Below are positions 1 through 11,690 of a stretch of 64,000 nucleotides of DNA, in pieces; the first letter of the stretch is position 1; each line of letters opens with the position of its first letter. The notes under the pieces were generated by a model, which worked only from the letters and a program-made list of their open reading frames with translations, was not told the origin of the DNA and ran no database searches. The stretch lies in the NCBI GenBank assembly GCA_964631125.1, contig CAZVYN010000008.1:3746-67745 (forward strand), read 5' to 3'. The position numbers were made by a program, and so were the translations under genes. Source of the stretch: an uncultured bacterium. GTDB taxonomy: Bacteria; Eisenbacteria; RBG-16-71-46; CAIMUX01.

Positions 1-285
1 TGTGTGGATCGTTGTTTTGAAGCGCGGAGCCTATTCGGTGACCTCGTCTAACCATGGCTGGCCGCTCAGCCACATCCGCGTGGTGGTGTGGGATGCGGCG
101 ACAGCGCGAGAGATCGGGAAGATCGCCGGCGCGTGAGCGAACCCGACGCGAGGATCAACAGCGCGCTGTACTTCAGAGGAAACCGCGCCGTTAGCCGCGC
201 CGTTAGCCGCGTCGAAAGTCGCGTGAGTGGCGGCACTTGCCCCAGGCTGGGCAGACTGCCTGCCAACGTTGGAGCGAGTCGACGC

Positions 286-723
286 TTAGCGCCGCTTCTC
301 CCCCCGCGCCGCCCACGCGATCGCGAGGAAACAGACGATCAGCAACGCGCTGTACTCCATCCCGTTTCGTCCGGCCCCGACGACGAACCACCCTTCGGTC
401 CAGTGGACGAGGATGACGCCGATGGTCAGTTCGGCGGCGAACCAGAGGGCGAGGGGAAAGACGAAGCGGCCGAGCACCAAGAGCGCGCCGCCGAGAATCT
501 CGACCGCGGTCAGGAGCCAGGCGACGGCGACGGCGACGCCGACGCCGACGGGGAAGCCGCGTAGGCCGAGAAACTCACCGAAGTCGTCGACGGTCCCGAG
601 AGACATGCGGGTGACGCCGTGGATGAGCATCATCGCGCCCACCGCCATTCGGATCACGACCAGTCCTTGACGTTGCCGTCCGATCCGCGAACGGTCGTGA
701 CGTCCGCCGCTCTGAACTGCCAT
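286..723 (-). CDS. DoxX family membrane protein (BufD-like partner of MNIO systems)
   Basis: ORF 286..873(-). The C-terminal 145 aa show the DoxX signature (GFPVGVGVAVAVAWLLTAVEILGGALLVLGRF..., four TM helices). The start is placed at an internal Met (MAVQSGG...). The gene runs divergent to the DUF692 gene. Confidence 0.65.
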   Translation of the reverse strand: MAVQSGGRHDRSRIGRQRQGLVVIRMAVGAMMLIHGVTRMSLGTVDDFGEFLGLRGFPVGVGVAVAVAWLLTAVEILGGALLVLGRFVFPLALWFAAELTIGVILVHWTEGWFVVGAGRNGMEYSALLIVCFLAIAWAARGEKRR

Positions 724-1768
724 GACGCCTCCTTGTCCCCCCGGAGTGTCCCCTCGGAGTGTCCCGTCGGAGTATCCTCGCCCGACGATGAACTCCCCGT
801 CCCAGGCGCCCGAGTCCGCACTCTTCCTCGAGCGCGTGAGAACACTGCCCCATCTCGGGATCGGCGTCTCCACCGAATACGGGGCGGGCGATTCCGCGTC
901 GGCGCTGGATGTCGTGCGGCTTCGACGAGAGCACCCCGGCTATGCCGGGTTCCTGGAGATCGGACTCGAGGCCGACAAGGGGCTGGATCGCCACGCGCGC
1001 GCGTGGGTCGAGTCGGGCGCCGCGTGCACCTACCACTTCCTGGACATCAATCTGGACGAGCCGGAAGACCTGGACGACGACTGGCTTCGGCGCGCGCAGG
1101 AGATGGCGGACGAGATCCGGCCGGCTTGGCTGTGTGGTGACGCGGGGTTGTGGCACTTCGGAGGTCGTGAACGCGGCCACATGCTGCTCCTGCCGCCGGT
1201 GCTCTCCGAAGAGTCGGCTCGCGCGATGGCGGCGGGGATCCGTCGGCTGCGTGAAGCGACCGGGCGCGAGGTATTGCCGGAGAATCCGCCGGGCTCCGTC
1301 TACCTGGGCGATCTGCACCTGCTGGAGTTCTTCGCGCGCGTTTGTGAGTACGCCGACACCGGCATGCTGCTCGATTGCGCGCACCTCGCGATCTATCAGA
1401 TGACGCAGGGACACGCGCCCCTCACCGGGCTCGATCGCTTCCCGATGGAGCGCGTGGTCGAGATGCATGTGGCCGGTGGCACGCGGCGCAGCGTCGACGG
1501 CTACGAGTTCGTCGAGGATGACCACCGCCCGAACGTCTTCGATGAGACCTGGTCGATCTTCGAGCACGCCGTTCCACGGGCCACGAACCTCAAGGCGGTC
1601 GTCTTCGAGTGCGAGCGGAATCCGCTTCCCGACACGCTGGAGGGATTCGCGCGGATCGAATCGATTCTCCGGCGCTCGCCCGTCGCGCCGCCCGTCGCGC
1701 CGCCCTCCGCGCCGCCCGTCGCGCCGCCCTCCGCGCCGCCCTCCGCGCCGCACGTCGCGCCGCGGTGA
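722..1768 (+). CDS. DUF692 / multinuclear non-heme iron oxidase (MNIO, MbnB/BufB-like), TIM-barrel
   Basis: Motifs LGIGVSTEY...FLEIGLE...YHFLDINLD...AWLCGDAGLWHF...LLLPPVL...MLLDCAHLAIYQ match the DUF692 xylose-isomerase-like fold. An alternative start lies at 788 (MNSPSQ). The C-terminal 28 aa form a Pro/Ala repeat tail (PVAPPSAPP...). Confidence 0.75.
   Translation: MTPPCPPGVSPRSVPSEYPRPTMNSPSQAPESALFLERVRTLPHLGIGVSTEYGAGDSASALDVVRLRREHPGYAGFLEIGLEADKGLDRHARAWVESGAACTYHFLDINLDEPEDLDDDWLRRAQEMADEIRPAWLCGDAGLWHFGGRERGHMLLLPPVLSEESARAMAAGIRRLREATGREVLPENPPGSVYLGDLHLLEFFARVCEYADTGMLLDCAHLAIYQMTQGHAPLTGLDRFPMERVVEMHVAGGTRRSVDGYEFVEDDHRPNVFDETWSIFEHAVPRATNLKAVVFECERNPLPDTLEGFARIESILRRSPVAPPVAPPSAPPVAPPSAPPSAPHVAPR
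1677..1762. repeat. 12-bp tandem repeat x7 encoding (PVAP/PSAP)n at the MNIO C-terminus
   Basis: cccgtcgcgccg / ccctccgcgccg units. Confidence 0.85.
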
Positions 1769-1780
1769 GCGGGTGATTCG

Positions 1781-2656
1781 GTGAGCAACGTTCACCTCCA
1801 GCGGCTCGTCGTGCGCATGCTCTACGACTCGCGGTTCTCCGAATCGGTCTATTCCGATCCGGCGGCCGCGCTGGCCGAAATCGAACTGACCGAGGAGGAA
1901 CGCCGCTGGCTGACGACGCCCGATCGCCGCGCCTATCGCACCGACGCTGCGCGCCGCGCACGCTCGCTCACCGTCGTGATCGAAGAGTTCGCTTCCACCT
2001 GCGCCTATTGGATCGCCGCCGGACGCGATGCACGGGCGCTCGATGGATACTTTTCGTCGCGGGAGTTCCACGACGAGATCCAAGCGCGCGGGTCGTTGGT
2101 GAGCGGATTCGGCGCGTATCTCCTGTCACTGAACGATCAGCTCGAGGACGACGCCAAGAAGCGGGTCGCGCTCAGCGAATTGGCGGGACTAGAACTGGCG
2201 TTGGTGAAGTTGCGGCGGCGCTTTCCGTTGGATCCCAAGGGTCCGACGGCACACGGCGAGATCGGTCGCCTGGCCCTCCATCCCCAGGTGGAACTGTTCG
2301 ATTGCGCGGGCGGGACGCTGACGCTCTCGGTCGAGATCCGTCAGCGCCTGGGGATCCCGAAGGAGAATCCGGTCGAGGTGATGTTCCGCCCCGGATTCCG
2401 GTTGGACGGACCCCCCCACGGTCGCCTGCCCAAGATCGATGCGGGCGCGAGGGAGTTCCTGCTGCTAGAGTTCCGCGGCGGAGAAACGACGGTGGGGGAG
2501 ATCAGCGAGGAGCTGTTCCACCTGCTGACGGCGGCCCGGAGTCCAAGGACACGGGACGAGTTGGAGGCGGAGGCGATCCAACTGGGGGCCGAGCCGGACG
2601 AGGCGAACGAGATCCTGCAGGGCTTGATCGACGAGTCGATGTTGCGACCGCGGTGA
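1781..2656 (+). CDS. DUF2063-like protein (BufC/HvfC-type MNIO partner)
   Basis: GTG start 12 nt after the DUF692 stop and in the same frame. The N-terminus MSNVHLQRLVVRMLYDS...AAALAEI resembles a DUF2063 N-terminal domain. At 291 aa the size matches MNIO partner proteins. Confidence 0.55.
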   Translation: MSNVHLQRLVVRMLYDSRFSESVYSDPAAALAEIELTEEERRWLTTPDRRAYRTDAARRARSLTVVIEEFASTCAYWIAAGRDARALDGYFSSREFHDEIQARGSLVSGFGAYLLSLNDQLEDDAKKRVALSELAGLELALVKLRRRFPLDPKGPTAHGEIGRLALHPQVELFDCAGGTLTLSVEIRQRLGIPKENPVEVMFRPGFRLDGPPHGRLPKIDAGAREFLLLEFRGGETTVGEISEELFHLLTAARSPRTRDELEAEAIQLGAEPDEANEILQGLIDESMLRPR

Positions 2657-2761
2657 CCCCGCGGGAAGTTCGACGAAGTGAGACAGAACCGATGAAACGT
2701 TGCCCCGTCGTTTCCGTAGAGGCCTCCGCCGGCTGATCCAGCCGGCGAGCGCGCTGCCGGG

Positions 2762-5500
2762 ATGCGCGACGCTCTCCACTTCCTGAACATGAGAGATCGA
2801 TTCATGACGAAGCCCTCTTCGCGCGGCTGGTTCGCGACGGCCTGGCCCCTCTTGAACCTCTTGACCCTCTTGACCCTCTTGACCCTCTTGACCCCTTTGA
2901 CCTTCGCGGCGCTCTCGACGACGGCCGCCCTCGCGGTCGAACCGCGGGTCTACTACACGGCCCGCACCGACACGCCGCCCCACCTCGACGGCGCTCTCGA
3001 CGATTCGGTTTGGGACAACGTGGAGTGGGGCGGCGACTTCATCCAGCACGAGCCGGCCGAAGGTCAGCCCCCTTCCTGCCAGACTGCGTTCAAGATCCTC
3101 TACGACGACGACAATCTCTACCTCGCCTATCAGGCCTTCGACCCCGAGCCCCAGGCCATCTCGAGCATCTTGGGCCGACGCGACGACTTCCCCGGCGACT
3201 GGGTCGAGATCAACATCGACAGCTTCGACGACAACCGCACCGCGTTCTCCTTCACCTCGAGCGTCTCGGGAACGCAAGGAGACGAGTTCATCTCGGAGGA
3301 CGGCGACAACTGGGACGGCAACTGGGATCCGATCTGGGAGCAACAGACTCGCATCGACGACCAGGGGTGGACCGCGGAGGTCCGCATTCCGCTGGGACAG
3401 CTTCGCTACGCCGACAGCGCCGAACATGTCTGGGGCATCCAGGTGACGCGACGCATCTATCGACACGAAGAGCGCTCCGTCTGGCAGCCGGTCCCGAAGG
3501 ACGAAGAGGGGTGGGTCAGCAAGTTCGGCGAGTTGCGCGGCATCACCGGCATCAAGGCGCAGCGTCAGATCGAGCTGCTGCCGTACGCTGTCACGCAGGG
3601 AGAGAATTTCCCCAAGCAGGCGGGCAATCCGTTCGAGGACGGCAGCAAGGGTCAGGTCGCGTTCGGTCTGGACGGCAAGATCGGCGTCACCAGCGATCTG
3701 ACCGCCGACTTCACGATCAATCCCGACTTCGGGCAGGTCGAGGCCGATCCGTCACAGGTCAACCTGACGGCGTTCGAGACCTTCTTCGAGGAGAAGCGCC
3801 CGTTCTTCATCGAAGGGAAGAACATCTTCGAGTTCCGCGTCGCGCCCTCCATCGCGTTCGGCACGCACACGACCGATCGACTCTTCTACTCGCGTCGTCT
3901 CGGTCGCTCGCCGCACTATCGCGCCGACGGATTCGAGGAGGGGTACGTCGACCAACCTGGCGAGACGTCGATCGTCGGCGCGCTCAAGCTGACCGGGAAG
4001 ACGGCCAACGGCACATCGATCGGTGTGCTGGAGAGCGTGGCGGCGAGAGAGACGGCTGAGATCGATGTCGACGGCGCGAGGCGCAGAGTCGAAGTGGAGC
4101 CGTCGACCAACTACTTCGTAAGTCGCGTCCAACGAGATTTCCGCCAAGGCGACACGCGAATCGGCGGGCTCTTCACGGCGGTGAATCGGAAGATCGACAC
4201 GGACGAACTGAAGTTCGTGCACGAGGCGGCCTATACCGGCGGGCTGGATTTCTTCCACTACACGCCGGGGCGCAAGAACTACATCGCGGTCAATCTCCTG
4301 GCCAGCACGGTGCGGGGCGATGAGGCCGCCATCCTGGCGACGCAGACGGCGCCGGCGCGCTACTACCAACGCCCGGACAACAAGGGGCAGTCGGTCGACA
4401 GCACGCGGACATTGCTGGCGGGACATGGCGGTTCATTGCGGGTCGGAAATTCGCAGGGCAACCTGCGATTCGAGACCGGCGCGGCCTGGCGCTCCTCCGG
4501 CTTCGAACTGAACGACATCGGATACATGCGCAATGCCGACGAGATCAATCAGTTCTCCTGGGCCGGCTACGCCTTCCGCAATCCGTTCTCGATCTTTCGT
4601 CGGATGGATCTGAACCTGAACCAGTGGCTCGATTTCGAATTCGGCGGGGAGAATCTCTACCAGGCCCTGAACTTCAATACGAGCGCGTCGTTCCTCAACA
4701 ACTGGAGCTACAACGGCTCGGTCGCGCGTGAGAACGAGCGCATCTCGACGTATGAACTGCGCGGCGGGCCCTCGATCAAACTCCCTGGCGCGATCAGCGG
4801 CGACTTCGGATTCGACTCCGACGGGCGGCGGAAGCTCGCCTTCGGCGGCGGCGCATCGTTCAGTAGGTCCGACGATGAGGCGGGAAGCTCGAGCGGCTGG
4901 GGAATCGGCGCCTCTTATCGGCCGACGAACGCCATTCGCTTGCAGGTGGAGCCGGAGTACGAGCGGGGCCGGCCGGACATGCAGCACATCTCGCGGGTCG
5001 ACTCCGATGCCGGCTCGCGCTTCATCTACGGCAGCCTCGATCAGGAAACCTTTGCCCTGTCGTTCCGGGTCGACTACAGCGCGACGCCGGATCTCACGAT
5101 CCAGTACTACGGCGCGCCTTTCGTCTCGGCCGGCAAGTATGGCGACTTCAGGCGCATCACCGACCCGCGCGCCGAGAACTACGAAGATCGCTTCGACCGC
5201 TTCGGCGATCGCGTCGAGTTCGACGGGAAGAGCGGCCGGTACTCGGTCGACGAGGACGACGACGGCGTCGAGGACTACTCGTTCCGGAAGCCCGACTTCA
5301 ATGTGCGGGACTTCAATTCGAACCTGGTCGTTCGCTGGCAATACTCGCCGGGTTCGAGCATCTATCTGGTCTGGTCGCAGAACCGCGGCGGCTTCAACCC
5401 GGACGGCAGCTTCTCACTGAAGGACGATCTCGACGGACTCTTCGGCGTGCAGCCGCACGACGTGTTCTTGATCAAGGTGAACAGGTGGTTTGATCTTTAG
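2762..5500 (+). CDS. CBM9-like/DUF5916 domain protein (probable outer-membrane-associated hydrolase-like protein)
   Basis: N-terminal DOMON/CBM9-like region (DGALDDSVWDNVEWGGDFIQHEP...FKILYDDDNLYLAYQAFD...DWVEINIDSFDDNRTAFSF) followed by an approximately 650-aa C-terminal region. Long signal peptide containing an (LLT)n repeat. Alternative starts at 2789 and 2804. Confidence 0.6.
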   Translation: MRDALHFLNMRDRFMTKPSSRGWFATAWPLLNLLTLLTLLTLLTPLTFAALSTTAALAVEPRVYYTARTDTPPHLDGALDDSVWDNVEWGGDFIQHEPAEGQPPSCQTAFKILYDDDNLYLAYQAFDPEPQAISSILGRRDDFPGDWVEINIDSFDDNRTAFSFTSSVSGTQGDEFISEDGDNWDGNWDPIWEQQTRIDDQGWTAEVRIPLGQLRYADSAEHVWGIQVTRRIYRHEERSVWQPVPKDEEGWVSKFGELRGITGIKAQRQIELLPYAVTQGENFPKQAGNPFEDGSKGQVAFGLDGKIGVTSDLTADFTINPDFGQVEADPSQVNLTAFETFFEEKRPFFIEGKNIFEFRVAPSIAFGTHTTDRLFYSRRLGRSPHYRADGFEEGYVDQPGETSIVGALKLTGKTANGTSIGVLESVAARETAEIDVDGARRRVEVEPSTNYFVSRVQRDFRQGDTRIGGLFTAVNRKIDTDELKFVHEAAYTGGLDFFHYTPGRKNYIAVNLLASTVRGDEAAILATQTAPARYYQRPDNKGQSVDSTRTLLAGHGGSLRVGNSQGNLRFETGAAWRSSGFELNDIGYMRNADEINQFSWAGYAFRNPFSIFRRMDLNLNQWLDFEFGGENLYQALNFNTSASFLNNWSYNGSVARENERISTYELRGGPSIKLPGAISGDFGFDSDGRRKLAFGGGASFSRSDDEAGSSSGWGIGASYRPTNAIRLQVEPEYERGRPDMQHISRVDSDAGSRFIYGSLDQETFALSFRVDYSATPDLTIQYYGAPFVSAGKYGDFRRITDPRAENYEDRFDRFGDRVEFDGKSGRYSVDEDDDGVEDYSFRKPDFNVRDFNSNLVVRWQYSPGSSIYLVWSQNRGGFNPDGSFSLKDDLDGLFGVQPHDVFLIKVNRWFDL
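2849..2903. repeat. 9-bp tandem repeat (cctcttgac) x6 encoding (LLT)n in a signal peptide
   Basis: Direct repeats in the 5' end of the CBM9/DUF5916 gene. Confidence 0.8.
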
Positions 5501-5530
5501 TGCGTTGAGACCGCAGCGGTCTCAACGCAC
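5500..5530. terminator. perfect 15-bp inverted repeat with 1-nt spacer between convergent genes
   Basis: gtgcgttgagaccgc-a-gcggtctcaacgcac spans both stop codons. There is no clear U-tract. Confidence 0.4.
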
Positions 5531-7597
5531 CTCCCATCCCACCGAAACCCCGTCCTCTCCGTCCACCACTCCATGTGCGACATCCACCCGAACCTGCCCC
5601 TTCATCCCGACACTCCCCACTCGCACCCCCACGCCCCCATCCACCAACCACTCCGCGCGCCCGAACCCTCCCGTCTCGCACGGCCTCGCCGCATCCACGA
5701 ACAGCGCCCCCCCGATCCGCACCGGCCCCACGCTCCACAGCCACCGCTGGTGCTCGACGCTTCCATGCGCGAGCGCGCGGCCGAACGCGTCGCCGTCGAT
5801 CACTCGGCCGTCGTCCAAGAGCGGATGCGCACGCAGTAGCAGCGTGCGCCCCTGCCCCGTACCGGCGCCCGGCCAGAGCGCCAGTGGCGCGCGCGAACTA
5901 GCGGAAGCCACGCCGACACGGCCGCGCCACGCGCTCCACGCGTCGACTCCGGCCGACCGCCACACGGCAGAAAGGCCGACCGTGTAGAACGGCGCTTCGC
6001 CGTCGAGGTCCGTCCAGTGGGCGAGTTCGGCAGTCAGTGCGAGTCGATCCCGCGCGGCGCGCTGTTCGAACGTTCCGTCCACCGAAAGGGATGCGTCGCG
6101 GCCGTTCCACTTGTCGAGCGCGGCGCCGAAGCGATAGCGCAGGCTCGGAGTCGCCCAGTCGGAGAACGAGACCGAGCTTCGGCGGCGTTCCTCGGGGAGC
6201 GGCGAACGATCGGAGGAGCGCAACGAGTCGTCCGCGGAGGCCGCGCGAACGTACGACTGCTCTTCCCAGAATCCCGCGACGCGCCAGACGCCGGGTCTTC
6301 CGGCGACACCTGGCATGTCGAGCGAGACGGAAACGCGCGGGCGCTCTTCCCACCACCTCCCGCCCACGCTCCACCGTTCTCCATGGCCGATGAGACTGAC
6401 CACCGAGAGTTCGATCTCTCGATCGACCGCGGCCTCGACGCCGAGGCGGACGACATCCCAACGGCTCGCGAAGAGTCGCGGACGCTCGAGCACCGCAACG
6501 TCGATCTGGGCGACGTCGTCCGAGGTCGGCCGCACGGAGAGGCGAGCGGCGGAGAGCGCGGGTAACTCCTCCAGGCGACGTTGCGCAAGGCGGAAGTCGC
6601 GGCGCGTCAGCATCTCGCCCGTTGGGAGGTCGAGTTGATTCGTCACGGCGCGGTAGCGAATGGAGGAGAGACCGTCGACCTTGACGAGATCGGTGCGCGG
6701 GGCCGAGACCGCGTTCCAAGCATCGAGCGCGCCGCCGGTGTCGCCAGCCAGGTAACGGCTACCGGCCAAAAGTCTCCACGCTCGAGCATCGCGTCGATCG
6801 ACGGCGACCGCCTGCTCGGCCAGCTCGCTCGCGCCGATCCAGTCCTCGGAGAGAAAGCGCAGGCCGGCGAGTTCGCGCAGCGGAGCAGAGGATTCCGGGC
6901 AGAGAGCGGCGGCCGCGCGAAGTGTCGTTTCCGCGTCGACCCGCGCGCCGCGCTGAGCCTCGGCAATCCCACGGTCGACGATCGCGCCGCATCCGTCCAA
7001 CGAGTCGAAGGAGCGCGTCGCGGCGGAGTCGACGGGAGCGACCGCAGCGAGTGTCGAGTCGGTTCGCGCGCTACTTCCCGCAGGCGGCAACGCGGTCAGC
7101 ATCCACCGCCCACTGCTCGCCCAGGCGAGGTCGAACTCTGCTTCGCGCAGGACGCGATGGGGCCCGGAGTTCGGATCGTGAACGATGACGCCGCCGTTCG
7201 CCCAGGCAACGACCACGACATAGTGCAGGGCGCTCGAGCTCATGCCGATGGCGCTGCCGACGCCGAGCAGCGCGATGACCGGGCGGCCGCGATCGAGTTG
7301 AGTCTGCGCGGCGTCGGCGGATCCTGCCTCGACCAACGCTGTCCATCCGCGTGACTCGACGGCCGCGACGAGCGATGTGGTGGAGATCCCGGCGCCGTCG
7401 GGTTCGAGGAGGTCGGCGAAATCTTCGGCGTGAACGCCGTCCTCGCCCCAGAAGCGGAACACCATCGCGACGGCGGCGCCGCCGCAGAGAGCGGGGCTTT
7501 GCGGCACGTAGGGCGCGTCGAGAAGTCGGACCGCGCCGGCCACAGAGCAGAAGGCGGTCGCCGTCAGCAAGACGACAACCGCCACCCACGATCTCAT
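5522..7597 (-). CDS. secreted multidomain protein: peptidase C39-like (papain-fold) domain + TPR repeats + POTRA-like/beta-barrel C-terminal region
   Basis: Signal peptide. YVPQSPALCGGAAVAMVFRFWG with HYVVVVAW and HDPN forms a C39_2-type Cys/His/Asp triad. A TPR-like segment follows (AWRLLAGSRYLAGDTGGALDAW). The C-terminal 300 aa have alternating beta-strand character (IDVAVLERP..., GVGVRVGSVGMKGQVRVDVAHG). Confidence 0.55.
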   Translation of the reverse strand: MRSWVAVVVLLTATAFCSVAGAVRLLDAPYVPQSPALCGGAAVAMVFRFWGEDGVHAEDFADLLEPDGAGISTTSLVAAVESRGWTALVEAGSADAAQTQLDRGRPVIALLGVGSAIGMSSSALHYVVVVAWANGGVIVHDPNSGPHRVLREAEFDLAWASSGRWMLTALPPAGSSARTDSTLAAVAPVDSAATRSFDSLDGCGAIVDRGIAEAQRGARVDAETTLRAAAALCPESSAPLRELAGLRFLSEDWIGASELAEQAVAVDRRDARAWRLLAGSRYLAGDTGGALDAWNAVSAPRTDLVKVDGLSSIRYRAVTNQLDLPTGEMLTRRDFRLAQRRLEELPALSAARLSVRPTSDDVAQIDVAVLERPRLFASRWDVVRLGVEAAVDREIELSVVSLIGHGERWSVGGRWWEERPRVSVSLDMPGVAGRPGVWRVAGFWEEQSYVRAASADDSLRSSDRSPLPEERRRSSVSFSDWATPSLRYRFGAALDKWNGRDASLSVDGTFEQRAARDRLALTAELAHWTDLDGEAPFYTVGLSAVWRSAGVDAWSAWRGRVGVASASSRAPLALWPGAGTGQGRTLLLRAHPLLDDGRVIDGDAFGRALAHGSVEHQRWLWSVGPVRIGGALFVDAARPCETGGFGRAEWLVDGGVGVRVGSVGMKGQVRVDVAHGVVDGEDGVSVGWEVR

Positions 7598-7608: not shown

Positions 7609-8028
7609 TCAGCTCGTCAGCAGGATCAAGATCAACAGGATGATGATGACCGCGGTGGCCGAGATGACGATGTTCTGTCCGCCCACGCTTTCGTCGAGTT
7701 GGACGACCTGCGCGGCGAGATCCGCGAGTTCGCTGCCGGAGAGAACGGCGGCGGCGGCGTTGGCGCGCGCCAGGTCGATTCCGGCGGCGCCCGCGATCTC
7801 GCGGACTTCAGCACGTTGCAGCAGCTGCTGAACGGCCGCCCGGTCGGCGCTCTCGCGATCGAACTGCTGATCGATCCGCGCCTGGATCGCGCCGGCGTCC
7901 ACCACGGACCTGGTCTCGACGGGTGCGTCGTTGCGAGGTTCACTCGCCTGGCTGCCGACGGCAGATGAAAGAAGCGCAGCGGCGGCGAGGACGAGGGGGG
8001 CGACGAATGCGTGGGACACCTTCATGGG
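7609..8028 (-). CDS. hypothetical secreted/C-terminally membrane-anchored protein
   Basis: Start at MKVSHAF (signal peptide). Ala/Gln-rich helical middle region. C-terminal hydrophobic anchor IVISATAVIIILLILILL. Ends 11 bp before the downstream C39/TPR gene. Confidence 0.4.
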   Translation of the reverse strand, partial: PMKVSHAFVAPLVLAAAALLSSAVGSQASEPRNDAPVETRSVVDAGAIQARIDQQFDRESADRAAVQQLLQRAEVREIAGAAGIDLARANAAAAVLSGSELADLAAQVVQLDESVGGQNIVISATAVIIILLILILLTS

Positions 8029-8129: not shown

Positions 8130-11100
8130 TCAGCGTAGTTGGTCCAGCGCGACTTCGACCGATCGCTCCAACTGTCGATCGATCCCACGCGCGAGTTCAT
8201 CCGGTCGATTCACCACGACGATGTCGGGTTCGCACCCGGTCCCTTCCAACGGAATGTCGTCTTTGCGCGAGTACCAACCGCGAAGCGGCAACCGGAGCGA
8301 GGATCCATCGGCAAGCGTTGTGCCGCCCGTGGAGATGACGCCCCCGTAGGTGCGCTGCCCGACGACCGGTCCGCGTCCGATCACCTGCACCGCCCAGGCG
8401 AAGATCTCGCCGTTGGAGAAAGTGTTCTCGTCGCACAACACGACGATCGGCTTCGTCCAGGCATAGATCAAACGCCGATCCTGTGGGTAGCCGCGGGCGC
8501 CGTTGCGCTCGACGGTCGTGGCGTGCGAAGGCGCCATCAGACTGGTGAGTAGATAGTCCGTGATCCATCCGCCGGAATTGTCGCGAACATCGATCACGAG
8601 CGCGTCGCGTCCGCGCGCCCGCCTGTAGAGGTCGCGCTCGTAGGTCTCGAGATTGCCGACCCCCATGGCCGTCAGATGGCAATAGCCGACGCGCCCCTCA
8701 CTGCGCGCATGGACCAGCTCCTCGCGGGCCTCGATCTCCTCCTCGTAGAGCCGCGCGCTGAAGTCGGAGTTCTTGGCTGGACGGATCGTGACCTCGCGGC
8801 GCTTCCCGTCGGCGCCGAGGACGGTGAGTCGCACCTTCTGGTCGACGGTGCGATCGAGCAGTCGAGCCAGACCGTCGGCGCCTTCGATCGCGGCGCCATT
8901 GATCTGGAGGACGACATCGCCCGGGTGGAGTCGGCTCTCCTCGCGATCGGCAGGAGTTCGGCGAACGACACGCGCCACGCGGAGTCCGGGACCTTCGAAA
9001 CCGGCGTCGAAGAGAGACCCCAGCTCGCCGGTCTCGGCGACCAGTGTCGGCATGACGTACTCGCTCGTTCCGCCGCTGAAGTTCTGGTGCGACGAGTTCA
9101 GCTCTCCGATCATCATGCGCACGACATCCTGGAAGTCGCGGTGCGTCGAGGCGGCCAGCGCCCAGGGGCGATAGTGTTCGCGCATGCGTGGCCAGTCGAC
9201 GCCGTGCATCTTCTCGTCGTAGAAGCGGGCGCCGAGTTCACGCCACGCCTCATCGAAGACGTAGCCGCGGCGGGCGACGCGATCGAGCGTCATCTCCGAC
9301 TCGAACGGGTAGCTGGTCACCTCGCCGCCGTCGGTCCCGACCGAGGCGATCGAACCACCCGACTCGAGGAAGAACAACTTCTTCTGCTTCGCGTCCCAGC
9401 GGACCTGCGACGGCTCGACCCCCGCCTTGGTCAACCGCTCCAGCTCGGTTCCGTCCCACTTCACCTTCCAGAGGTCGCGTTTCCCGTCGGTGTCGCCGGT
9501 GAAGAAGAACTCCGCGCTGTCCTTGCCGATGAGCACGTCGCGCTCCTGGCCCGGCAGGCTCGTCAACTTGCGCACGCGAAGGGGCAAATCGTCGAAGTCG
9601 ATCTTGACTTCGACGACGGCGGAGTCAGCCTTGCCGCCATTGTCCTCACCTTTGTCCTTCTCGTCCTTGGCCGAGCCCGACTTCTTCCTCGGCTTCTCCT
9701 CCTCGTCGCTCAGGTCGCGTTTGCTCATCGCATCGAGACGGTCGATGCGCGAGAGCTCTTCGTCTTCACGCTGCAGTCGGACGTACCAGAGGTCGACTTC
9801 ATTGCGCACCTGTCGCTCGGAGACGAAGGCGATCAACTTGCCGTCGGACGACCAGGTGGGCGCCGTGTCGTTTCCTGGGCGTTGGGTCACATTGAACGGC
9901 TCGCGCGAGCCGTCGACCGGCTCGATCCAGATCTCGCTGTTCGAGTCCTCGTCGGACTGTGAGTAGACGATCCATTTCCCGTCGGGCGACCAGTCGTAGG
10001 CGAGGTCGGTCCATCCATCGACGAGTACGCGCTCGTTCGTCGTCTTGCCGTCCTCGAGCTTGACCAGAACGAGCGCGCCGATTCCCCGTTGGAACAGGAG
10101 GCGCCTCCCGTCAGGAGAGAGCAGCGGGCGGCTCTCCTCGGCGGGAGTTCGCGTCAGCGGGGTGATCTCGACCGAGAGCGTTCGGGCGAGGCGCGGCTCC
10201 TTCTCGTCGGTGGAGCGGAGCAGATAGAGGTCGCGGTTGCCGTCGCGGTCGGAGACGTAGATGAGCCCCTTCGAATCGTCCAGCCAGACCGGCGACTGGT
10301 CCCGCGCGGCCGACGAGGTGAGACGGGTCGCGTAGGTCTCGTCCTTCTCGGATTTCATCGCGAAGAGCTCGCCTTCATGCACGAAGGCCAGTTGTTCGCC
10401 ATCTTCCGAGACGGCGAACTCCGTCGCGTTCCCTTTCACCGCCACACGCACGACCGAAGCAGCGTTGGAGTCACGAGGCAACGTGATGACCAACTTCTGC
10501 GGAGCCTCCGCTTTCTGGCCGCTCCGCAATTCTTCCCCCGTCGGCGCCGCCACGACGTACAGATCCGACTCGTACTCGAACGTCGCGACCGCTCCGTTCG
10601 CGCTCAATCGCGGATGCCGCAACCGTCCGTCCGTGAACCGCGTGATCAACCAGCGCGATCCATCTGCGATCGACAGGACGCACAGATTCGAGGCGCCGTT
10701 CTTCTCGCGCAGATAGAGCAGGTGACGTCCGTCCGGCAGCCATTGCGGGACCCCGGTCATCTGCGGGTCAGGAACAAGCGATCCGGGCGCGGTGAAGTCG
10801 CTCAGGTTCGTCACGCGCCCGTCTGCCCGCAGCGCGCACTGCGCATGCAGCCCGGGGCCGGTGGCGACCGCATCGTCCCCCTCGACGTCCGGCGCATCAC
10901 GCGGCGTCCCCTCGGCGCCCGCGCGCCACCAATCACCCGTCAACGGCGTCGTCGGCTCATGGAGCCAGAGTCGATGGCGACCGTTCCCACTATAGTTGCG
11001 CCACCACCAGAAGACGCCTCCGCGGATGTACGCGAGCTTCGATCCATCGGGCGAGAGCACCGCCGATCTCGCGCCGGTCGGAAGAATCGGCCAGGCCGCT

Positions 11101-11588
11101 CCGCCTTCGAGCGGTGCGACCCACGCGCCGGGGGTGTTGCCATCCCGGACATGTCGTGTGCTCTGGAAGAGCACGGCTCGACTGTCGCTCGTCCAACCGG
11201 TGGGGACATCGGCGCCGCTGTGCCAGGTAAGGCGCTGGATATCGCCGGCCTCGACCGGGATCGCATAGACATCGTCGTTGCCGTCGCGGTCTGATGCGAA
11301 GGCGATCCACTTTCCATCGGGCGACCAGATCGGATGCGCGTCGTACGCGGCGTGCGCGGTGAGCCGTCGCGCTTCGCCACCCTGACGCGCGACGGTCCAG
11401 AGGTCGCCCTGGTACGAGAAGGCGATGGAGCGGCCGTCCGGACTCGGGGCCGGATGTCGGGCCAAGAGGATCGGATCGGCGGCGAGCGCGGGCGCAGTCG
11501 CGGGCGCGATCGTCGGCCCGACGGTCGTCACGAAAAGCAAAGCGCCGATCAGGACGATCGCGACACGATTCAACTTTCCAACGACCAT
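8130..11588 (-). CDS. tricorn protease homolog (S41 peptidase with beta-propeller and PDZ domains)
   Basis: PD40-type propeller repeats (SPDGRSIAFSYQGDLWTV, SPDGKWIAFASDRDGNDD). PDZ domain. C-terminal S41 domain (YAWTKPIVVLCDENTFSNGEIFAWAVQ...GQRTYGG). About 1150 aa. Signal peptide after MVVGKLNRVAIV. Confidence 0.85.
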   Translation of the reverse strand: MVVGKLNRVAIVLIGALLFVTTVGPTIAPATAPALAADPILLARHPAPSPDGRSIAFSYQGDLWTVARQGGEARRLTAHAAYDAHPIWSPDGKWIAFASDRDGNDDVYAIPVEAGDIQRLTWHSGADVPTGWTSDSRAVLFQSTRHVRDGNTPGAWVAPLEGGAAWPILPTGARSAVLSPDGSKLAYIRGGVFWWWRNYSGNGRHRLWLHEPTTPLTGDWWRAGAEGTPRDAPDVEGDDAVATGPGLHAQCALRADGRVTNLSDFTAPGSLVPDPQMTGVPQWLPDGRHLLYLREKNGASNLCVLSIADGSRWLITRFTDGRLRHPRLSANGAVATFEYESDLYVVAAPTGEELRSGQKAEAPQKLVITLPRDSNAASVVRVAVKGNATEFAVSEDGEQLAFVHEGELFAMKSEKDETYATRLTSSAARDQSPVWLDDSKGLIYVSDRDGNRDLYLLRSTDEKEPRLARTLSVEITPLTRTPAEESRPLLSPDGRRLLFQRGIGALVLVKLEDGKTTNERVLVDGWTDLAYDWSPDGKWIVYSQSDEDSNSEIWIEPVDGSREPFNVTQRPGNDTAPTWSSDGKLIAFVSERQVRNEVDLWYVRLQREDEELSRIDRLDAMSKRDLSDEEEKPRKKSGSAKDEKDKGEDNGGKADSAVVEVKIDFDDLPLRVRKLTSLPGQERDVLIGKDSAEFFFTGDTDGKRDLWKVKWDGTELERLTKAGVEPSQVRWDAKQKKLFFLESGGSIASVGTDGGEVTSYPFESEMTLDRVARRGYVFDEAWRELGARFYDEKMHGVDWPRMREHYRPWALAASTHRDFQDVVRMMIGELNSSHQNFSGGTSEYVMPTLVAETGELGSLFDAGFEGPGLRVARVVRRTPADREESRLHPGDVVLQINGAAIEGADGLARLLDRTVDQKVRLTVLGADGKRREVTIRPAKNSDFSARLYEEEIEAREELVHARSEGRVGYCHLTAMGVGNLETYERDLYRRARGRDALVIDVRDNSGGWITDYLLTSLMAPSHATTVERNGARGYPQDRRLIYAWTKPIVVLCDENTFSNGEIFAWAVQVIGRGPVVGQRTYGGVISTGGTTLADGSSLRLPLRGWYSRKDDIPLEGTGCEPDIVVVNRPDELARGIDRQLERSVEVALDQLR

Positions 11589-11690
11589 GCACCCCCCGAG
11601 AAAAAGGTCGTGAAGCAATCCGGCGGGGGCAGGCTACCCGAACCACGCCCGCAGCGGGCACACACTCCGTCGATCTGATAGGGTCGTTCG

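Follow-up and report, generated by a model that had tools for sequence, protein, structure and literature searches.

Few of the peptide-modifying enzymes discovered in recent years are as inventive chemically as the multinuclear non-heme iron oxidases (MNIOs), and nearly all known MNIO systems were deciphered thanks to a substrate gene adjoining the gene of the enzyme. For example, in the 3-thiaglutamate/pearlin pathway of Pseudomonas syringae the MNIO TglH acts together with TglI, a partner carrying a RiPP (a peptide made by ribosomes and modified after its translation) recognition element (RRE; PDB 8hci/8hi7), and the precursor TglA is encoded in the same cluster; in the methanobactin system MbnA lies immediately upstream of MbnB. 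Here we describe an MNIO and its partner protein, encoded at positions 788–2656 of a 64,000-nucleotide (nt) stretch of contig CAZVYN010000008.1 (assembly GCA_964631125.1). This whole stretch is called the window, and coordinates are window positions unless they follow a locus handle. The two genes are a self-contained module, a pair that is conserved while its neighbours change from locus to locus, and the substrate would be supplied by a gene elsewhere in the genome.

The partner belongs to the class called PME-type 2. As described in the excerpted text of Antoine et al. (2025; PMC12452194), such proteins have a DUF2063-like fold that the DUF2063 model does not detect, are encoded right after the MNIO gene, and accompany precursors that have no Sec signal peptide; the window protein shares with them a size of about 260–290 amino acids (aa) with both domains, the position after the MNIO gene, the missing DUF2063 signature and a structure like that of NGO1945/TglI. 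Small MNIO clusters to which no precursor could be assigned are found in that text too, whereas neither a large cross-phylum subfamily of stand-alone pairs nor an NHLP-like N-terminal signature is described in it.

The MNIO and its partner protein

The first gene of the pair (788–1768, + strand; alternative ATG at 722) encodes a protein of 326 aa that matches PF05114 (MbnB_TglH_ChrH, formerly DUF692) at 88.1 bits (E = 7.6e-25, cut-off 25) and is thus a member of the MNIO superfamily. The Joint Genome Institute (JGI) gene call at L001:9008–9988 has the same coordinates; L001 is one of four JGI metagenome contigs (L001–L004) that carry the partner protein and are identical over this region. Scores against the NCBIfam models are 60.4 bits for ApyH (cut-off 400) and 15.2 bits for ChrH (cut-off 600). 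A profile of the MNIO subfamily matches the solved MNIOs 3bww (3.7e-9), MbnB (1.3e-5) and TglH (2.7e-5) with their ligand motifs aligned, and the putative ligands (H83, E165, D196, H199, H227, D244, H246, E274 and E276), which align with the motifs of MbnB, 3bww and TglH, are invariant across 26 MNIO sequences. At the place of the canonical SDH/SEH motif the subfamily has CGDAG(L/R)WH, that is, an invariant C116-G117-D118 followed by W122-H123, of which D118 and H123 are putative ligands; the HMMER alignment is ambiguous over C116–H123, and one ligand is uncertain. Judged by these motifs, the MNIO looks functional. At least 1886 proteins were found with the MNIO at E ≤ 1e-20 (representatives of 90%-identity clusters); the best 120 of the 1886 matches are 62–95% identical and are annotated only as DUF692/UPF0276.

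The C-terminus of the window MNIO is a lineage-specific tail of 29 aa rich in Pro, Ala and Ser, which derives from a 12-nt tandem repeat (7.6 copies, 1672–1763, + strand; Tandem Repeats Finder, TRF). The MNIO of locus L006, which is 95% identical, has no such tail and stops just 5' of the partner start codon.

The second gene (1781–2656, + strand) begins 12 nt after the first and encodes 291 aa from a GTG start (the first residue is written V in L001–L004). Its product matched neither the DUF2063 model PF09836 nor any other Pfam model at E ≤ 0.1, PF09836 was matched by none of 100 partner-family representatives at E ≤ 0.01, and NGO1945_C by one of the 100; a profile of the family found no chain among the PDB sequences even at E ≤ 10. 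An AlphaFold2 model built with seven homologues (pLDDT 82, pTM 0.74) consists of an N-terminal helical, DUF2063-like domain and a C-terminal beta-beta-alpha-alpha-alpha unit, a winged-helix RRE, the latter with pLDDT of 89–97. Among its fold matches are the RRE-containing TigE, NisB, McbB, TbiB1, PqqD and LynD, and the order of a helical N-terminal domain followed by an RRE-type domain is that of NGO1945 (3dee) and/or TglI (8hi7/8hci). With its gene directly 3' of the MNIO gene and no DUF2063 signature, the protein is a PME-type 2 partner, with a DUF2063-like fold but no place in the DUF2063 family. The sequence-only reading had taken the locus for a DoxX/DUF692/DUF2063 cassette and had staked that reading on a DUF2063 match. 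A DoxX gene (PF07681), the MNIO gene (PF05114) and a third gene are indeed in place, but the DUF2063 assignment of the third did not hold, either for the window protein or for any of the 100 family members.

The partner family comprises 727 clusters at 50% identity (profile search), and nearly all its members are 250–310 aa long. P0105 (701 aa) and P0112 appear to be chimeric or frameshifted gene calls, and apparent MNIO–partner fusions in stop-to-stop frames were rejected, being open alternate frames of the kind usual for high-GC DNA. The residues conserved best are charged and belong to the N-terminal domain (D16, D48, R50, D55, R58, R61, E69, H97, E138, R145 and R146); no Cys is conserved, and neither is the C-terminus.

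The best-conserved part of the partner is its N-terminal 70 residues, in which D16, D48, R50, D55, R58 and R61 are near-invariant, and it is here that the protein has an unexpected feature, a sequence that resembles a leader of the NHLP type. Residues 6–51 of the window protein (the nitrile-hydratase-alpha-like motif spans about aa 4–51, 1790–1933, + strand) match the NCBIfam model NF038399 at 28.3 bits (cut-off 40). This model was matched by 69 of the 100 family members, the best being P0009 (41.8 bits, 8.7e-11, above the cut-off), and Pfam PF14407 (Frankia_peptide, another precursor family) by 19 of the 100. When a profile covering the N-terminal 72 residues is compared with PDB sequences, the three best matches (E of 0.05–0.3) are 6lk7_A (85 aa, 'nitrile hydratase alpha chain', presumably the structure of Os1348; E = 0.049), a cobalt nitrile hydratase alpha subunit, and residues 328–362 of the gallate dioxygenase chain 3wku_A. 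NF038399 itself is named 'Os1348 family NHLP clan protein' and models a RiPP precursor of 85 aa (PMC7726476). The window protein is no stand-alone precursor of this clan (about 85 aa, at least 40 bits), having 28.3 bits, 291 aa and two further domains, and even in family members that reach 41.8 bits the match is confined to the N-terminal 50 residues. A hidden Markov model (HMM) of the N-terminal module detected no paralogue and no small precursor in the six-frame open reading frames (ORFs) of 613 kb of sequence.

The motif may be the first helices of an MNIO-docking domain or a built-in leader mimic. If the latter, the partner might give the leader in cis or be itself the substrate, with the NHLP-like module occupying the RRE, activating the MNIO for leaderless targets, or having one of its own residues modified. 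The frequent NF038399 matches (69 of 100, some above cut-off) and PF14407 matches (19 of 100), the identity of the best PDB matches (6lk7_A, the nitrile hydratase alpha subunit and 3wku_A 328–362) and the conservation of the N-terminal 70 residues with their near-invariant D16, D48, R50, D55, R58 and R61 all speak for such a role, which would also account for a precursor gene never adjoining the pair. Yet those PDB matches are marginal (E of 0.05–0.3), the family has neither a conserved Cys nor a conserved C-terminus, and we know of no MNIO partner reported as a substrate or a cis leader. We consider this explanation unlikely.

Conservation of the gene pair

Species-representative genomes were scanned with the partner alignment, which gave 37 loci in metagenome-assembled genomes (MAGs) of Eisenbacteria/Eiseniibacteriota, Myxococcota and Acidobacteriota (Blastocatellia). 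Metagenome contigs reached through the partner (L005–L007) or through the MNIO (L045–L050) added more contexts. Among the genomes with the pair are OZ244990.1 (L011), CAWANH010000028.1 (L010), NZ_JADJNN010000042.1 (Nannocystis sp., L042) and GCA_029569475.1 (L050). The Lhr helicase, used for taxonomic placement, has matches of 62–65% identity distributed among Planctomycetota, Myxococcota and Acidobacteriota, which point to no single phylum. Spacing and identity were computed over 41 non-redundant loci. Each relative was viewed over ±6–10 kb around the pair, and this genome over 64 kb plus about 8 kb of left flank.

The MNIO gene is directly upstream of the partner gene, on the same strand, in all 37 genome loci where the contig allows this to be seen, and the partner is directly downstream in three loci located through the MNIO. 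The median gap is −4 nt, with overlapping genes in 29 of the 41 loci and at most 20 nt in 36 of the 41; these overlaps and short gaps indicate translational coupling of the two genes. Identity to the window proteins is 49–95% for the MNIO (in the 40 loci besides the window) and 29–83% for the partner. Only the pair is conserved in the 41 loci, and the neighbours change from locus to locus: 56 immediate flanking proteins spread over 83 Pfam families.

Four loci have spacers of 115–160 nt between the two genes (L018, L032, L037 and L038), which were considered as precursor sites and rejected, being palindromic repeat insertions with no ORF. These inverted-repeat insertions of 120–160 nt, similar to repetitive extragenic palindromes (REP) or miniature inverted-repeat transposable elements (MITE), split the usually overlapping pair at L018:5827–5985, L032:5875–6000, L037:5847–5966 and L038:1203–1351. 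The gap seen in L024 is an artefact of masked sequence.

One lineage carries, at L049/L050:377–3388 and about 4.6 kb upstream of the pair, a lasso-peptide-type set (PqqD, a transglutaminase-like peptidase, an asparagine synthase-like cyclase and a 37-aa ORF), which is probably a RiPP cluster without relation to the pair. No riboswitch was found upstream of the MNIO gene when the window and five loci were scanned with Rfam; a tRNA in L045 was the only match.

Search for a substrate gene

No plausible small precursor gene was found anywhere in the 64-kb window, and none of the bufferin type (<200 aa, with a Sec signal and a Cys motif) lies immediately 5' of the MNIO gene in the window, the left flank or the related loci; the earlier observation that 1–2760 holds no Cys-rich ORF with a signal peptide was borne out. 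The left flank was recovered from L001, which extends past the left edge of the window by 8.2 kb (window position = L001 position − 8220). Upstream of DoxX it has a gene for a Cys-free protein of 127 aa (L001:7973–8356, ending at window 136) in which no N-terminal hydrophobic signal segment is discernible by eye, and beyond it ArsR-type and AHSA1 genes, both on the opposite strand, and then an S9 peptidase gene. The recovered flank of about 8 kb contains no precursor gene, so a canonical precursor there, which the sequence-only reading had named as the finding that would overturn its own view, did not turn up.

Comparison of all ORFs of at least 20 aa against each other, within ±3 and ±6 kb of the pair, gave no cluster outside the pair common to more than one lineage; all ORF clusters that are shared proved to be frame shadows, either of the pair itself or of a tricorn protease gene. 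The upstream and downstream gaps were also read locus by locus, with and without a filter on third-codon-position GC (GC3), and nothing recurrent was found. In several loci (L039, L015, L019, L030 and L044) the pair is tightly flanked, the space left at one or both of its ends being <20 nt. In L039 this space is 17 nt to a divergent gene upstream and 3 nt to a polyprenyl synthase gene downstream. The MNIO gene is preceded at 3 nt by the end of a TANGO2/NRDE-family gene in L015 and L019, and at 5–6 nt by the end of prfB in L030 and L044. An identifiable precursor, the mark of a RiPP system, was found neither in the 64-kb window, nor in the left flank, nor in common to the 41 loci, and these comparative data (no shared small ORF within ±6 kb) favour the earlier suggestion that the substrate is encoded elsewhere.

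Two small frames had been put forward as marginal precursor candidates. The first, CVDRCFEARSLFGDLV*, is an alternate frame within the called gene of the Cys-free 127-aa protein, and no ORF of at least 25 aa ends at that stop. The second, the 14-codon ORF MKRCPVVSVEASAG, does exist (2693–2737, + strand), but its proposed precursor role did not survive comparison with L006 and the other loci. In L006, where the partner is 83% identical, the counterpart reads MKRCLVDFVGASAG, with five nucleotide changes of which four are non-synonymous, and the surrounding intergenic DNA is 88% identical; there is no counterpart in about 40 other loci. The ORF was rejected, as it has no sign of purifying selection and no counterpart beyond L006. 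It is probably also too short to hold a leader for the RRE. The ORF overlaps a 9-bp hairpin (2727–2747), and the fold of the intergenic region is not unusual (z = −1.3).

One further ORF was noticed in a single Eiseniibacteriota MAG (L009:4115–5086): it has 323 aa, an unusually low GC content, a run of Asn and, at its C-terminus, a Cys-rich stretch (...CDKC...CSCTKCKARKP), and from its end there are 37 nt to the start codon of the MNIO gene (43 nt to the tblastn match). It has no family match and no counterpart in the sister loci.

That no precursor is nearby is also what would be seen if the pair had lost its RiPP role and acted on a small molecule or a free amino acid, or were a decaying remnant. 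The flanking genes are often housekeeping genes (prfB/lysS, ribosomal L17, ribosomal L32, riboflavin biosynthesis), and the 50–70% identity of the MNIO across phyla is unusually high for a RiPP enzyme, both of which fit such a loss. The remnant, however, is excluded by the strong conservation of both genes, the intact ligand motifs and the translational coupling, and a small-molecule role sits badly with a partner that keeps a confidently modelled RRE fold and with the characterized MNIOs of the excerpted literature (PMC12452194 and others), all of which act on a peptide or protein. A lost RiPP role is, in our view, decidedly unlikely.

Neighbouring genes

As the sequence-only reading had it, a divergent DoxX gene (286–723, − strand) precedes the MNIO gene. 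Its product (145 aa as called on L002, one of the four identical JGI contigs) matches PF07681 at 32.2 bits (cut-off 23.6) and is a generic DoxX protein, as its score against the HvfX equivalog NF050144 is 21.7 bits (cut-off 80). The open frame extends to 873, and the longer form would overlap the MNIO start. The start-to-start distance of the two divergent genes is 64 nt, most of which is occupied by the 13-nt direct repeat TGTCCCCTCGGAG (3.4 copies, 734–777, no strand assigned; TRF), and in L006 the intergenic region gains another 24 nt of like sequence. TGTCCCCTCGGAG is possibly an operator or regulator-binding array. Promoter and terminator scans over 1–3000 found neither.

This DoxX gene is part of what makes the locus look like an ordinary bufferin or Hvf operon, with its precursor just outside the window or in one of the two small frames. 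As in BufABC(D) and Haemophilus HvfABC(X), an MNIO, a two-domain partner (helical plus RRE) and a DoxX membrane protein are encoded in one neighbourhood; BufB (NF050167) is the best NCBIfam match of the window MNIO; and the 14-codon ORF, which has one Cys, is kept in L006. However, the window proteins miss all equivalog cut-offs widely (83.4 bits versus 310 for BufB, 59.4 versus 360 for HvfB, NF003818, and 21.7 versus 80 for HvfX), and PF09836 fails in 100 of the 100 family members. No Sec-signal, Cys-containing precursor lies 5' of the MNIO gene, the left flank holding the Cys-free 127-aa protein and then ArsR and AHSA1, and of the two candidates one merely shadows a called gene in another frame, and the other has four of five changes non-synonymous and is not found elsewhere. 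The window DoxX gene is divergent and lineage-specific: by tblastn a DoxX gene adjoins the pair only in L001–L004 and L006/L007, and it is missing from the Pfam-annotated contexts of L005, L045, L047 and L049. The bufferin-like framing is therefore largely refuted here, and we give it hardly any weight.

Downstream of the pair, on the same strand and after about 105 nt, is a gene for a secreted CBM9-like/DUF5916 protein (2762–5500, + strand; PF19313 225.5 bits, PF06452 35.2 bits; 912 aa, or 898 aa from 2804). Its signal-peptide region contains a 9-nt tandem repeat (6.2 copies, 2847–2902) that encodes LLTLLTLLT, and 2.2 kb thus hold three short tandem arrays (734–777, 1672–1763 and 2847–2902). 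Next come genes for a secreted, TPR-repeat-containing cysteine peptidase of C39-like type (5522–7597, − strand), which resembles the PA2778 family at 60.9 bits (below the cut-off of 150), and for a PA2779-family protein (7609–8025, − strand; 41.3 bits, cut-off 40). These two are a separate two-gene module and no RiPP leader peptidase for the MNIO. The DUF5916 gene adjoins the pair only in L001–L004 and L006/L007, and the C39 peptidase gene likewise only in close relatives of the window; DoxX, the DUF5916 protein and the C39/PA2779 pair would be lineage-specific neighbours outside the MNIO–partner system.

Large peptidases of differing families (tricorn/S41, M28, M13, M16 and S9) adjoin or lie near the pair in several independent lineages: in the window at 8130–11618 (− strand), directly upstream of the MNIO gene in L024, L026 and L028, and also in L045, L049, L031, L010/L014 and L008.

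The pair could conceivably be a protein-modifying system that acts on the large secreted DUF5916/CBM9 protein or works with the adjacent peptidases. The same-strand DUF5916 gene about 105 nt downstream, an order kept in L006, and the recurrence of peptidase genes (tricorn/S41, M28, M13, M16, S9) beside the pair in independent lineages are consistent with this, and MNIOs may modify proteins according to the excerpted text of Antoine et al. (PMC12452194). But DUF5916 stands beside the pair in this lineage only, and its product, with a single Cys, is exported by Sec, whereas the substrates that accompany PME-type 2 partners are cytoplasmic and signal-less. As to the peptidases, their families differ, and they make up about seven of the 56 immediate neighbours, a weak excess from observations that are not independent. 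Such a target is very improbable.

Discussion

By membership, the window proteins belong to the MNIO superfamily and to the operational PME-type 2 class, and lie outside the BufB, HvfB, DUF2063 and HvfX families. Our preferred reading, to which we give a probability of roughly 0.55, is a heteromeric MNIO–partner oxidase whose RRE recruits a peptide or protein encoded elsewhere, probably without a signal peptide, one residue of which is then modified by the iron centre. By analogy with TglHI, MbnBC and BufBC, the MNIO and its partner would form a heteromeric enzyme; the RRE of the partner would recruit a ribosomally made peptide or protein, and the MNIO would oxidatively modify one residue of it. 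As no substrate gene lies beside the enzymes in this genome or the relatives examined, the substrate would come in trans, from a gene at some other place in the genome, and, as in other PME-type 2 systems, it would probably have no Sec signal peptide. Since this partner type is tied to signal-less precursors, an ORF with a Sec signal and many Cys is probably the wrong search image for the system.

Several points weigh against this oxidase with a substrate in trans. Supply in trans is an argument by elimination, the substrate gene itself having not been found, and the view extended to ±6–10 kb per relative and to 64 kb plus about 8 kb of left flank here. BLAST clustering could miss precursor ORFs that are very short or evolve fast, although the tightly flanked loci argue against ORFs missed in this way. 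Complex formation, iron binding and peptide binding are carried over from homologues and would have to apply to the window proteins as well. Finally, one metal site of the MNIO may differ from that of canonical MNIOs or be remodelled, given CGDAG(L/R)WH in place of SDH/SEH and the ambiguous alignment over this stretch.

In its way of working the system is probably most like TglHI, as an MNIO with an RRE-bearing PME-type 2 partner, from which a signal-less substrate is expected; the MNIO profile also matches TglH (2.7e-5). It differs in that no precursor gene adjoins the pair in any locus, in the very low sequence similarity (the partner-family profile finds no PDB chain at E ≤ 10) and in the NHLP-like N-terminal motif of the partner. 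With MbnBC it has in common an MNIO and a partner, which in MbnBC is obligatory and forms a heterodimer with the MNIO. The match of the MNIO profile to MbnB (1.3e-5) is accompanied by the alignment of E165, D196, H227, D244 and H246 to MbnB ligand positions, but the SDH motif of MbnB is replaced by CGDAG(L/R)WH, and nothing corresponds to the MbnA gene upstream. From every characterized MNIO system the pair differs in two respects: it has no co-encoded substrate across a large, conserved, multi-phylum subfamily, and its partner carries the NHLP-like signature.

These two features admit a further, more speculative reading, which we hold unlikely: a widespread and strongly conserved class of MNIOs without co-encoded precursor, in which the NHLP-type module and the RRE of the partner make the enzyme permanently 'leader-activated' or self-modifying, and in which the target, encoded elsewhere, is either a peptide without leader or a conserved protein of the cell. 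The pair would then be a post-translational protein-modification system and no natural-product pathway.

The window should not be annotated as a bufferin or copper-stress operon. The MNIO–partner subfamily is large and spans several phyla of soil and sediment bacteria. If it acts on a peptide family encoded in trans or on a protein of the cell, MNIO chemistry extends past the classical logic of gene clusters, and genome mining based on gene neighbourhoods would in that case miss the substrates systematically.

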